NCBI GenBank assembly: GCA_051294905.1
Contig: CM119375.1
Coordinates: forward strand, 1,054,001-1,118,000
From: Botryllus schlosseri
Lineage: Eukaryota
DNA length: 64,000 nt
Direction of reading: 5' to 3'
Of this stretch, positions 2,377-20,300 are shown piece by piece. Made by a program: the position numbers and the translations under genes. The first letter of the stretch is position 1. Each line of letters begins with the position of its first letter. The notes beneath the pieces are model-generated. The model was not told the origin of the DNA, searched no databases, and worked only from the letters and a program-made list of their open reading frames with translations.

Positions 2377-5300
2377 GTGAGAAATTAAATTGTCTTTGGA
2401 TTCCAGGAAAGTTTATTGCTCTATACGAGGGACCCCCGACCTAGGGAGCCATATCAGACTTTTTAATGAAATAATTATTATCTATAATTTTGCTCCACTA
2501 TAACAACAGCATCGAAGAAAATCACTCGGCTCGACTCGAGTCCATTCATGGTGTTTGTCGACTACATTGGTCAGTTACACCAGGCCGATTTTATATTTTT
2601 AACCCACTTCTAGGCTTTTTTTAAGACACCGCGCATGCGGATCACATGGCGTAGATGGGCCTAGATATACCTCCAACCACTTAGATAAAAATTCTGCAGA
2701 CGTCCTCGGTCGGACTTGAACCAGCAACCCATTGATGTTGCAGTCGTGGATTATACCACTACGCTATCTCGCCACGCGAGTCCGTTTTAGTATTGAATCG
2801 ACCCCAAAATGCCTTCCCGCGGATCCCGAAGGGGTCCGTGAACCCCCGGTTCATAACACTTCCCTATGGCCTGGACTCGGACTTGACTCGGGGGTGAATT
2901 GAAAATGACTCGACTTGACTCGAGTCAAAAAACTCCAAAAGTCCAAATTGACTTGTGACTCGGAATCATTTGACTTGGTTACAATCATATATATTGTGTG
3001 CTGTATTATTATCATTTTATCATTTAAATACCGATGAGTGTCTAACGTAGTTTTTTTTTTTAAATTGAAATAACGTTTCCCAATTTATTCAGAAGATTAA
3101 AGGGAGAAGAGGGCATCGATTTTTCTAAAATTTTCAAAGAGGGCCACCCCTACTTTATACACTTGTATTTTCTCTGCTCCGAGTAATCATAAAAGGTTTC
3201 TTGCTGACCGAAACGTTCATTAGTAGTAATATGTTTGGGCGATCGACGCCCATTCTCGATTTATAAAGAACAAACAAACATTATCAAGATAATAAACAGT
3301 GTAAGAATTAGCTCATTCTCAATTTTGCAGCAATACTTTTATGACCTTGTGTGCGGCAATAAAAAAAGGGGGAATAATTAGCGATAGAGAGAAAACGAAC
3401 AAAGAATCTGGATTGACCTTTGTACTCAGACATGAGACTGGAGTACTTCTACTTGTACTTTTCCACTCGCCTCCTGATTATAATACATTGTAATTTTACT
3501 GTATTTTTCCACGATTCACAGCTGACTTCGGTCGTACACGACGGTGATCATAGTTGCCTGCCCTGACCTGTTGTTCCGTGGTCCAATTTAGTGGCTTGGG
3601 AACAATAACCCGTAAAACTGGTTGACTTGTTGTTCCGCGGTTGATTCATTTTCGTGTACGGTGGGTCATAGGAATAATTGCCGGTCGTGACGTCAGTATA
3701 GTTTTCTTCTGATCCATGAGATCCTGGTGCGTGTTTTAGGTGTCTATACGTTCGGCTGTGCATAGTGACGCATGTAGTCTGTTCCATACTGTCGTACTTG
3801 CTCTTGCTTTGTTGTCGACTTAAATAGTAAGGAGAAATGTTCTGGTTATAAATATGTGTGTCATTTTGAGTCATATCGAGAACCAGAATGTCGTGTATTA
3901 GAAATAGGTATTAGGCGCCCCCGACATAGATTAACTTGAATAAAGTACCATTTAGAATATAATAAGTAATTAAAGAAATAGCTCATTCTCAATTTGACTC
4001 GCATCAACGTGTTAATTTCCGATATTGTAGTAATTGGTGCAAGCAAAAACTGCTGTTCCACACCTTTACCGCTTTCTAGCGTCTTAGGACAGACAGTCCC
4101 AACCAAACAATGTGATGGGTTCTTTTTACTGCTTCACGGTTGGTCAAGCGTAATCATCCCGGTGTCTGCAAATGATATTCAATTTACCACGGGATATTAA
4201 TTTTGTATGCTGTACATGATATACAACTTGAATCGATCTGTTGGCGAACTAATGCTTTCCCCGTCTGTAACATACACATATCGATCACGAGCTCACCACG
4301 CACTTTTCGTTCGAGGGCGACTCATTTCGCTGCAGACAATCAGTTGTGTTCGCGTGTATCGTAACATATCCTCAAGACTTGTTATGCCAACACCTCCACG
4401 CATATTTACAATATCATACTAAGGAACTATTGCTTCGACAGCCACGCACTATCGCTCGAAGTCGACAAATTTCGCTACAGACAGTCAGTTGTGTTCACGT
4501 ATGTGTCGTAAATATATCCTCAACACATGCTATGCCAATACCTCCAAGCATATTTGCATCATACTTAGGGTTCTGGTCAGGCTGATTTAAATCATCACGT
4601 GTCGACAATCGATCGAAGCCCGTCAACTGGTATTTTGAAAGCTACCGGTATGGTGTATTATTGTGTATGGATTGGTGCGGTATTAGAATTGTGGTTACGG
4701 CTCGTTGGCGGTGCGAGGATCAGGTTTATAGTATACTATAACTACTTAGCTCGGATACGACGCGCTGCTATCGTTGCTTTGTCCAAGACCTAATTCACGA
4801 TAATCAATCTCGCTGTCGAAAATGACATGCGGCCGCGTAGACTGCATAGCGCCATTTTGTTTTGTGATCCATCCTGCTGTGCCGAGGATCGAAACATATC
4901 CTCAACACATGCCAACACCTCCAAGCATATTTGCAGCATCATACTACGGATATATTGACTCGGCAGAGTGTTACCGCCAGAGAATTGCTGTGTCACGTCT
5001 TCGGGCCTTGCATTTTCCGCTCGGTAACTGCGAGTACGATGTTATTTCAATTGTCCACGAAACGAATCGGGGTAGCTCGTTTCATTCGAAATCGGAATCC
5101 ACTGCGACTATAGGATTGCAAAATCAAAGTCCAAAAAATCCGACTGGCACGTAAAGTACTGGTTTCTCCATATATTAGGCTGGGTAAAATGTAACATAAA
5201 TCCAACTCTCAAAGACACTGCTGTAAGGGGAGTGTCGTTGTACATTAATTTGCGTACAGCGAAACTTTGTATGCGGTGGTGCAATAATGAGGATGAATTG

Positions 5301-17300: not shown

Positions 17301-20300
17301 ACTACTAGCTATCGTCTCGACTCAGTAATCTCACACGAGCGGCGTGGAAAGAGGTTATCAGATTGTAAAACCGCGTGTTTGTGAGAGCACTATACGCAGT
17401 GATAATTAAAACAGAGCGAGACAGTATCGCAGTACATTAACAGGGGGAAAATCAGCGTGATACGTAATCAATACTCAACTCTCGCTTCCAGTATAGTGAC
17501 CAAGCGACGACCGAGACCAATGTCCAACGTTTTCGAACAAAGAGAATAATTCCTCGACCCAGCGGGATGTATTACAGGACAAAGGCGCTGTGTACGAGGC
17601 GACATGGCTGTTTTCGAAAGCGAGATTGTCGCTCCTCGGCATAGCAGGATGGATCACAAAACAAAAGGCGCTATGCAGTCTACGCGCCCGATGTCATTTT
17701 CGAAAGCGATATTGAACATCGTAAATTAGGTCTTGGACAAAGCAGCGCGTCGTATAATACCCGAGCTAGGTAGTTATAGTATACTATAAACCGGATCCTG
17801 ACACCGCCAACGACCCGTAACCACAATTCTAATACCGCGACAATCCATACACAATTATACACCATACCAAGAACTTTCAGGGTATCCGTCGACGGGCTTC
17901 GAGCGATTGTCGACACGTGATCCGTGCTCTGTGACCCGTAACAATAGAGGGCTTTATTTACATAGGTATTTTTTCATATTCTCGAGAACTCGAGTTGACA
18001 CGTATATTTATAACTATAACTGATCATCTCCCCCTACCACAATCTCGGTCTATAAGCAGAGTACGATTCGCGTATGACACAGGCCGTGGGCGTCGCTTTG
18101 CACAACCGAGCGTATGGACACCTAAAACACGCACCAGGATATCTCTATCAGGAGAAAACTCTACGACAGACAACTACTACCAATCCCCATCACGCTATAT
18201 ATTATTATAATACAGATAGATACATATTATTTTATTGTAAATAAAGGAAAATCCACTTTATCAATTCATCCGCCCGGCGTTGACCATCTACCTAAAACAC
18301 GAACCGGGATCTCCCCTACGGATCCGAAGGAACAAATACTATACTGACGTCATGCTTGACGGGGAAATATTCCCAAATCCTATCGTGTTTACACGCAATT
18401 GGATTAATCAACCCACCGCGGAACGACACGTCAAGACAGGTGAACTATACCGATTCGTCGGCGTGCACACCATTGAAATTAAAAGTCAATCCATTGTTAT
18501 TCGAGGGAAAATATAAAAAATAATACACAAGTCTCGTGTCCAGAGGCGAGGTAGAATCAGGAGTGGAAAAGTACAAGTAGAAGTACTCCAGTCTGAGTAC
18601 AAAGGTCAATCCAGATTCTTTGTTCGTTTTCTCTCTATCGTTAATTATTCCCCCTTTTTTTATTGCCGCACACAAGGTCATAAAAGTATTGCTGCAAAAA
18701 TGAGAATGAGGTAAATCTTTCAGTATCTTTTATATTGATAATGTTTGTTTGTTCTTTATAAATCGCGAATGGGGGGATTCCGCACAAACCTATTACTACT
18801 TTCATTTGCAGCCCTCCACAACGCGATCAGTGTGGAACGAAACTGCCCTACTGCACGAGTGGTTCGGAAACGAGACGGACAATGCCATCGGCGGGTTCGG
18901 ATGCGGAACCGGAGCCGGAGCAGTGTCGGTTTTCAAAATGAAATCAAGCGGTGAGCATCACTAAACAATTTAAATTTTAGTTGCATAATTGGAATGATCA
19001 GAGCGAAATGCGGGTCATTTATTTCTACTATGATTTTAATGCTAACCTAATTTCTGGTCTTCCTGAAAATGCTGCAGAACTGCATATAGTGTGAAACAAA
19101 TCAAACTTGGTTTTACATTCACTTGCCATTCTCGTACTTATGAGAATGAACCTGATATGGGAACTGAACTTGGTTTTTGTTGTATGACACCTCCTCATTT
19201 GGAATGTAGCCTAATTTCCAAGTCTTTGGCAATTCATTAATTCTAATTATAATCTAATTTGGAAAAGCTGAACATTTTTAATTGCCCAACTCTGCCCCTG
19301 ATGACAGGAACCCTAACTCCGGAAGAATTCAGCGTGACGTCATCAATCGGAGATAAAGTCGTTATTCGGATGCTCAGCAAAAACTCGCACCAGCTCGGAG
19401 GAGTCCTGTGGTACAAAGACGGACATATTCTGGATCTGAGAGAGAATCCGAGAATATGGGATGTAAGACGAGGACTGAATCTTAATCGCAATAATCCGTG
19501 GATAACTAACCTACGAATGAATGCGAAACACGTGACTGCATGGTTTGGCAAACAGCGAGAGCTAGCAATTTCTGTCAACATTGGTATACAGAGTGACACG
19601 GTAATGTTATAACTTGCCAAATTTATTAAATCTGGTCTTGCACGGAAGCTACTGCATCTATTTCGAAATTCCCCCTAAAAGACAATTGGCATGCGACACA
19701 TGAGCATGTGGGTTAAATTACGGGTTAGGGGTAGGTTAGGGTTGGATTTATGGTTGGGTTAGGCTTTAGGTTAGGATATATATATAAGGGTTAATTTCAG
19801 GGCTATGTTTCGGGTTAGGGTAAGTTTTTGGGTTATACAGTCACATGCTGAAGTGACGCATGCTGATGTGTTCCATGCTGGGCTGTCGTTTTCCATTGTG
19901 TTGCATGCTCATATGTCGGGCAACCGATATGTATATGAGTTTATTGTTACTAATTTTATCCCGACTTATCTTTCTTGTTTTCAACAATCCGAACACTTTG
20001 AATCTTCGCTTAAATTGACTATATTACAATCACATGTTGCGGTGTTCCGATTGTTCGTAACAATTCTGATTTCTAGCCAGCTCTGATTTGTGCAGTCATA
20101 TGTTGAGAAGGGATACCATATGTCCTCTTTTAAGAGAATTTGTCATCTTTTTTCAATAAAAGAGAAATGTCCTCCGAGTATGCCCAAATGTGGTCTTTTA
20201 TCGCAATCCGTCCTCTCTTTTTGTTTGGAGTGTTAGGCGACTAGAGACGACTGAAAAGGATCAATTCACCCAAAAGTACACGTGAAAACCGGCTTTTTCT

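Follow-up and report, generated by a model that had tools for sequence, protein, structure and literature searches.

The window, which is a stretch of 64,000 nucleotides from Botryllus schlosseri (assembly GCA_051294905.1, contig CM119375.1, positions 1,054,001 to 1,118,000 of the forward strand), contains a mobile element of the Polinton/Maverick type, whose parts are collected in Table 1. The element spans positions 3222-18800 (15,579 bp), begins with AGTAGT, ends with ACTACT, and is flanked on both sides by a perfect 6-bp target-site duplication (TSD), TTCATT. Its terminal inverted repeats (TIRs) are about 249 bp long, with an identity between the two ends of only 90%. Five open reading frames (ORFs) were considered credible, which encode an IAP, the protein-primed polymerase pPolB, and proteins of 80, 159 and 235 amino acids. 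An earlier description of the window from its letters (the sequence-only reading) had reported the ends, the TSD, a size of 15.6 kb, and intact pPolB and IAP genes, all of which were confirmed, while the conserved 80- and 159-amino-acid ORFs are additional to it. As described below, the left part of the element belongs to a family of palindromic derivatives (satellites), and the right part to a family of complete Polintons (helpers).

Table 1. Parts of the element and its flanks, in window coordinates
Feature	Position	Strand	Remark
TSD TTCATT, left copy	3216..3221		
Left TIR, AGTAGT end, satellite-type variant	3222..3468	+	Same sequence as left end of palindrome L061 over its first 239 bp
Complete 6.4-kb arm of palindromic IAP satellite	3222..9604		99.4-99.8% to arms of L061-L064 and L067/68
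Block homologous to PolB-side subterminal region of complete Polinton, outside its 522-bp TIR	4594..4892		86-90%
IAP cargo gene, intron-less, 392 aa, three BIR domains, no RING	6896..8074	-	
Central non-palindromic spacer of satellite	9605..10790		Cut 31 bp short of second arm's start
Blunt satellite/helper junction, no shared sequence	10790..10791		Found at window locus only
Replication half of complete Polinton family; mosaic	10791..18800		94-99% to best sister per 800-bp tile
56-nt GT-AG intron, helper inter-module non-coding region	10867..10922	-	Spliced in 21 RNA reads of family
Conserved Polinton ORF, 80 aa, function not assigned	11047..11289	-	95-99% in sisters, 53% in second family
pPolB, intact, 1292 aa	11611..15489	-	Relatives carry PF03175
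Conserved Polinton ORF, 159 aa, function not assigned	15603..16082	-	
Probable OB-fold single-strand-binding protein, 235 aa	16476..17183	+	Language-model features only
Right TIR, ACTACT end	18561..18800	-	90% identical to left TIR, differing from base 10 inward
TSD TTCATT, right copy	18801..18806		

The searches for the remaining genes of a Polinton were negative. None of 11 integrase/morphogenesis-side proteins of a complete sister element was matched by tblastn in the element or in the whole window, and the best E value for 266 six-frame peptides of 3222-10790 in phmmer --max searches was 0.27, with no integrase or capsid remnant. An Rfam scan of 3200-18850 detected no structured RNA at the gathering score. 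Hence, the absence of integrase, capsid, ATPase and protease that had been proposed before was borne out, and the degenerate integrase or capsid remnants, which would have spoken against the sequence-only reading, were not found by either protein search. The element has the (AGT)2//(ACT)2 ends, the 6-bp TSD and the protein-primed PolB of an autonomous Polinton/Maverick, but the rve integrase, both capsid proteins (major and minor), the ATPase and the protease were not found with the sister proteins. Judged by its gene content, the element is outside the autonomous Polinton family.

The comparison with other loci showed that the two parts of the element have different relatives. The left part, 3222-10790 (7,569 bp), aligned in one piece to palindromes L061 and L063 at 99.7-99.8%, with 9 mismatches and 3 gaps against L063, and 17 mismatches and 3 gaps against L061 (7,570 bp). 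It consists of one arm and the spacer of the youngest IAP palindrome subfamily, while the second of the two mirror arms of 4.7-6.4 kb without PolB, which characterize a satellite, is replaced here by the PolB-bearing part. Internal duplicates make up 1,585 of its 7,569 bp (21%), so that the earlier description of this space as filled with duplicated non-coding blocks holds for about a fifth of it, but the region as a whole is an arm and spacer of the other family. The right part, 10791-18800 (8,010 bp), matched the complete element L069/L070 at 95.7-97% exactly from its first to its last position, and it corresponds to the replication module of the helper with the genes of the SSB-like (single-strand-binding) protein, the 159-amino-acid protein, pPolB and the 80-amino-acid protein. 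It is a mosaic, with tile identities of 94-99% and the best sister differing by tile.

The two parents do not share any sequence at 10790|10791. A 601-bp query centered on the junction was used to search the assembly, and 40 of 203 candidates were scored. Only one of the 40 matches, the window locus itself, spanned the junction, while 20 matched the helper side alone and 19 the satellite side alone. In all 29 examined loci from this search (20 helper, 9 satellite) the parental sequence continued intact, and the unbroken satellite sequence over the breakpoint occurred 51 times, compared with 0 for the control. The satellite break is located in the spacer, 31 bp from the arm–spacer boundary, and the helper break lies within a 650-bp gap between the replication and morphogenesis modules (about 4% of 16,471 bp), which left every replication gene whole. 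Both positions are suggestive, yet they come from a single event, which was noticed because PolB stayed intact. In DNA run X1 the depth, which is the summed depth of short contigs and not a copy number, dropped about tenfold at the junction, from bins of 3,465-41,202 on its left to 611-1,485 on its right. Origin of the element by simple deletion from a complete Polinton was also considered and rejected, because 4901-10790 matches no stretch of the complete elements compared.

The helper family is represented by the complete Polinton L069/L070 (16,471 bp), which encodes an rve integrase (Pfam E 5e-8), a double jelly-roll (DJR) major capsid protein (MCP; ESM Atlas 0.98, PF21738) and a P-loop ATPase, together with ORFs which, from their motifs and the gene order, we take to be protease-, PW- and penton-like. 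Besides the window locus, the PolB search (36 of 348 candidates scored) gave 19 loci with a close PolB. The 235-amino-acid gene has 20 close copies (150 of 288 candidates scored), which coincide in position with the 20 close PolB loci. By coordinates, an integrase was present within 20 kb at 18 of the 19 sister loci and an MCP at 17, while an IAP was near none of them, which makes the window the only one of 20 close PolB loci with an IAP nearby. Among 18 far-side stretches the ATPase was found in 18, the integrase in 17, and all 11 genes in 14; of the other four, one is at a contig edge, one has a tandem duplication and two are interrupted. A perfect TSD was seen in 10 of the 11 copies with both ends found (18 examined). 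These data indicate that the sisters of the window PolB are ordinary complete Polintons. Two of 21 close integrase copies (C11:269790 and C3:7404627) have an MCP but neither PolB nor the 235-amino-acid gene within 20 kb, by coordinates, and the one at C3 has a single listed TIR core, as truncation would show. One complete-family copy (L147, C12:10548100-10558099) contains a tandem duplication of about 6 kb over the integrase, the ATPase and their neighbors. The assembly contains at least two further Polinton families, with PolB 62-65% and 38-39% identical, and 96 integrase matches at 43-46% identity were listed, nearly all of them stop-free.

The relatives of the left part were found by a genome search with the left TIR (40 of 325 candidates scored). 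The matches were mostly inward-facing pairs 11-23 kb apart, mostly away from the PolB places. Nine of the ten TIR-pair elements examined were giant palindromes, with arms of 4.7-6.4 kb that are 99.37-99.98% identical and separated by a short spacer, and the tenth was a complete Polinton. No ORF of the helper set was present in the nine palindromes. The TSD was a perfect 6 bp in nine of the ten elements and 5/6 bp in one, and the arms or TIRs matched at 99.4-99.98% in all ten. The closest relatives of the left part are 14-kb palindromic non-autonomous Polinton derivatives with an IAP in each arm. The genome holds both complete 16.5-kb Polintons, the helpers, and many 11-23-kb palindromic derivatives with the same ends and host-type cargo in both arms. 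A block of 300 bp is common to the satellite arms and the helper's PolB-side end, where it lies outside the 522-bp TIR, and this fits an origin of the satellites by fold-back of this end. The reversed spacer of L067 relative to L061 was considered as a sign of flip-flop isomers, but with identical arms this is indistinguishable from the orientation of insertion.

With 105 of 452 candidates scored, the genome search for the IAP yielded 107 matches, two of which were excluded as second pieces of split matches. The 76 matches at ≥78% identity formed 30 inverted pairs, and the 29 at 61-71% formed 10. Among the 30 best copies the arms within one element differed at 0-4 sites per 1,179 bp, and the polymorphisms common to at least two elements were 20 synonymous and 18 non-synonymous, which corresponds to a ratio of non-synonymous to synonymous polymorphism (pN/pS) of 0.25 that is biased low, because the copies were picked by protein similarity. 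Pairwise pN/pS against six more distant copies was 0.14-0.31. Other cargo was also found: a 95-amino-acid ORF with only a death domain is present in both arms of L065/L066 (L065:4536-4820 and 9481-9768; Pfam Death E 2e-10; best PDB match the TNFR1 death domain), adjoining an IAP remnant, and a 168-amino-acid C2H2 zinc-finger ORF occupies the spacer of two palindromes, L077-L080 (L077:6595-7101; L079:7619-8125), whose arms hold IAP remnants only.

Several other repeat families were observed in these searches. The IAP copies at 61-71% constitute a second family of tail-to-tail pairs 1.3-2.7 kb apart (e.g., C4:18247008-18249890), in an orientation opposite to the first, and none of them was near a TIR core of the window family among the 100 of 124 cores listed. 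A third family consists of dispersed single intron-less frames of about 580 amino acids with a RING, on many contigs and in at least 26 places (e.g., C10:14576610 and C8:9433124). Some other mobile element may carry this family, which may also be related to the gene from which the satellite IAP derives. No host progenitor of the satellite IAP was identified in the genome search. Distant homologues of the 235-amino-acid gene, listed in 123 rows, form 26 inverted pairs with mostly 11-12 kb between the partners (e.g., C14:16594457/16605729), which suggests palindromic satellites of another Polinton family, with this gene in both arms.

The 1292-amino-acid pPolB gave no direct match in Pfam, PHROGs or PDB. 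PF03175 (DNA_pol_B_2) is, however, present in two full-length relatives, P0122 and P0131, one of which also has a weak Vsr match. The motifs that we take to be those of the exonuclease and the polymerase are intact. Against 14 sisters the window copy had a pN/pS of 0.08-0.18, and its 9 private changes all lie outside the sites that are invariant among the copies compared. The intact motifs and the pN/pS values suggest that this copy may still encode a working polymerase. However, because the comparison was made with complete sisters, the purifying signal is older than the junction, and was inherited from the helper. The 235-amino-acid protein is a probable OB-fold single-strand-binding protein, as suggested by ESM Atlas feature matches to RPA-type OB families (best 0.94-0.95). 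The single-sequence AlphaFold model was uninformative (pLDDT, the predicted local distance difference test, of 30), one homologue search returned nothing, and four phmmer matches to DUF11-type repeat proteins were treated as spurious. Thus, the previous assignment of an SSB-like protein is supported by the Atlas features, but not by AlphaFold and the sequence searches.

The IAP of the window contains three BIR stretches (Pfam PF00653, E 4e-46), and its closest homologues are ascidian (44% to an IAP of Styela clava, which itself has a RING). The C-terminal RING ligase is absent, as the ORF ends at 392 amino acids, and the alignment to P0001 (574 residues) does not extend beyond residue 476 of that protein. 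Hence, the cargo IAP is without a RING, unlike its closest relatives. The proposal that the element carries host-manipulating cargo is upheld as regards the presence of a host-type gene.

Transcription was assessed with two of 24 listed runs, which were the DNA run X1 and the single-cell RNA run X24 (about 3% read); none of the indexed datasets containing the sequence is on record as RNA. In X24 sense reads piled up at the 3′ end of the IAP gene, while the body of PolB was almost uncovered. The IAP reads carried four alleles absent from the window copy (32/33, 24/24, 25/25 and 14/15 reads), which among the 32 copies compared occur together only in the satellite L177/L178. These reads, together with the 21 spliced reads of the 56-nt intron, show that the satellite and helper families are both transcribed at some level, and the reads were not traced to the window copy.

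Taken together, the element is very probably a one-off recombinant of a complete Polinton and a palindromic IAP satellite, which was integrated in trans; by the comparisons above it is neither a family nor a genome segment. The integration in trans, which had also been proposed in the sequence-only reading, follows from the clean 6-bp TSD around an element without its own integrase. The join was most likely formed before the insertion, because the TIRs are mismatched near the ends under a perfect TSD, and because the right half is a mosaic without an exact donor among the loci compared. A related case is the satellite L177/L178 (C2:17967681 onward; 15.4 kb, TSD AACATT). Its inner 4.4-kb arms are matched at 99.5%, but its TIRs and outer parts were contributed by different subfamilies. 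It carries an IAP as well as a death domain (L178:6729-7004, 91% to that of L065). The complete copies L141/L159 and L142/L160 also have mixed ends, and the TSD is perfect in all of these elements. Since elements with unlike ends inside a perfect TSD turn up repeatedly, it seems common in this system that molecules recombine before they integrate.

Such a recombinant could have arisen if a single germ-line nucleus contained free linear DNA of both parents, which replicated there by protein-primed strand displacement. The satellite spacer would then form the unpaired loop of a fold-back form or of a folded single strand, and a break or template switch could occur there. The broken satellite would be joined without homology to a helper fragment, and the product, with one usable end from each parent, would be inserted by the helper integrase in trans. 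The hybrid could in principle make a polymerase and an SSB, but no integrase or virion, and no second copy of it is left in this assembly, as far as the 40 scored of 203 junction candidates show.

Several points weigh against this explanation. The junction rests on the assembly, because the 8 records listed of more than 42,000 in X1 include no read or contig that crosses 10790|10791, and a hybrid with a different breakpoint would have escaped the junction search with its 40 of 203 scored candidates. The exact helper donor of the right part was not among the loci compared. Free DNA, a fold-back intermediate and the way in which the molecules were joined are steps that we infer, and not observations. 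The location of the helper break at a module boundary could reflect selection for a working replicon rather than chance, and the two integrase and MCP copies without the PolB side could be either truncations or reciprocal products.

The same observations have a bearing on other origins of the locus. If the satellite had inserted first and broken at its fragile center, the right arm could have been replaced in place by copying a Polinton from elsewhere. A long palindrome is expected to break near its center, and both the position of the break, so close to the arm–spacer boundary, and the terminal homology common to satellite and helper are consistent with such a repair. However, the left TIR and the right end are unlike up to 10 bp from the terminus, so that an outer crossover by homology, with preservation of the TSD, would have had almost no sequence to use, the inner junction is without homology, and the right half matches no single sister compared, its best tiles (94-99%) coming from various loci. 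This makes repair in place improbable. Even less credible is an assembly mis-join of a satellite copy and a helper copy. Although each half is a multi-copy repeat and the displayed reads do not include a spanning one, an assembler would have had no common sequence at the junction to work with, and TTCATT flanks both of the unlike ends, which by chance would be expected about once in 4,096 cases.

The sequence-only reading had instead proposed a propagating replicon without capsid and integrase (a satellite, a linear-plasmid-like element or one segment of a multipartite virus), which would provide the polymerase while others provide integrase and capsid. All four replication-side ORFs are intact, the PolB substitutions are as described above, the break is at the module boundary, and the integrase copies at C11:269790 and C3:7404627 could be seen as complementary segments. 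The data showed, on the other hand, that the junction is present once among the 40 scored matches, that multiple copies with the same capsid-less gene set were not found, as an IAP is near just one of the 20 close PolB genes, and that the sisters are complete Mavericks, which that reading had itself named as an observation that would speak against it. The purifying signal predates the junction, and the integrase-only copy at C3 resembles a truncation. An element which had long replicated by means of paired ends should have matched TIRs, as its parents do, but those of the window element are not homogenized (90%). We thus regard a propagating replicon as improbable as well. The one-off deletion derivative, which had been mentioned as the alternative, agrees with the data in being one-off, but not in being a deletion, because the left 7.6 kb come from the palindromic family and have no internal match to a complete element. 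The recombinant origin of the element before its insertion explains these features best.

Outside the element, a very high-copy transcribed short host repeat is located just left of the insertion site, at 2700-2950. Further to the right there is an intron-less ORF of 295 amino acids (26710-27597, + strand) with what we take to be a methyltransferase-like glycine motif, and two presumably fibrinogen-domain-like exons (46713-47171 and 50127-50579, both on the - strand), which probably belong to a host tandem gene pair.

Intact Mavericks have (AGT)2//(ACT)2 ends, TIRs, a 6-bp TSD, a length of 12.7-24.6 kb and pPolB (PMC8097293; PMC4028283). The window element resembles them in its ends, TIRs, TSD, pPolB and a size within this range, and the helper family in its integrase, MCP and ATPase, as identified by tools. 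It differs from them in the lack of the integrase and the morphogenesis module, in the mismatched TIRs, and in the origin of one half from another family. There are earlier reports of Polintons that lost virion genes and of PolB next to a TIR with no integrase: nine Polintons without MCP, protease and ATPase were described (PMC4028283), and in C. elegans pPolB and a TIR without integrase were found at 10 loci (10.1101/2024.01.15.575659). Unlike in those cases of gene loss or remnants, the window element has both ends and the TSD intact, with a cargo-bearing satellite arm in place of the missing half. Nematode Mavericks carry host-type cargo beside the integrase in largely complete elements, and recombination between Mavericks has been inferred there (10.1101/2022.07.12.499685). 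This is similar to the situation in B. schlosseri, except that here the cargo is on gene-less palindromic satellites and reached the PolB-bearing molecule by recombination.

The nearest analogue of the satellites appears to be the snapback defective genomes of adeno-associated virus (AAV), which contain a mirror-image copy of one genome end, depend on the parent virus, and for which helper functions were proposed (PMC8235507). Unlike these transient particles of a single-stranded DNA virus, the satellites are 11-23 kb long, integrated with a TSD, and form heritable subfamilies with host genes. Integration without a detectable integrase of its own, for which integration in trans was suggested, is also known for the Polinton-like virus Ca_PLV1 (PMC11296320), although the Ca_PLV1 elements keep the morphogenesis genes and are associated with entomopoxviruses. 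No description of palindromic Polinton satellites or of satellite–helper hybrids was found in the literature searched, with subscription papers mostly outside it, and the available portion of a review (PMC6431247) contains no mention of such a form.

The mode of Polinton replication, a possible exit from the chromosome and the capture of host genes are open questions on which the hybrid bears, and Polinton virions have not been observed, as one report notes (PMC8097293). The presence of one end from each parent under one clean TSD implies contact and joining of helper and satellite molecules ahead of the insertion. This speaks for free germ-line replication intermediates and for recombination as a route for cargo. 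As a single copy, the window element does not establish a new class of replicon, and its main value is as physical evidence that helpers and palindromic satellites recombine. The larger finding is the palindromic satellites with their cell-death cargo, which this locus ties physically to the helper. It is conceivable, though we think it unlikely, that the satellites constitute an accessory genome of the Polintons, co-replicating with them, swapping ends and modules, and supplying anti-death genes, such as the RING-less IAP and the death-domain-only protein, that would keep the host cell alive during replication. If this were true, the window element would be a caught intermediate, a new replicon with polymerase, SSB and IAP that was cut at the module boundary of the helper, and it would show a route by which Polintons may gain host genes or begin splitting into segments.

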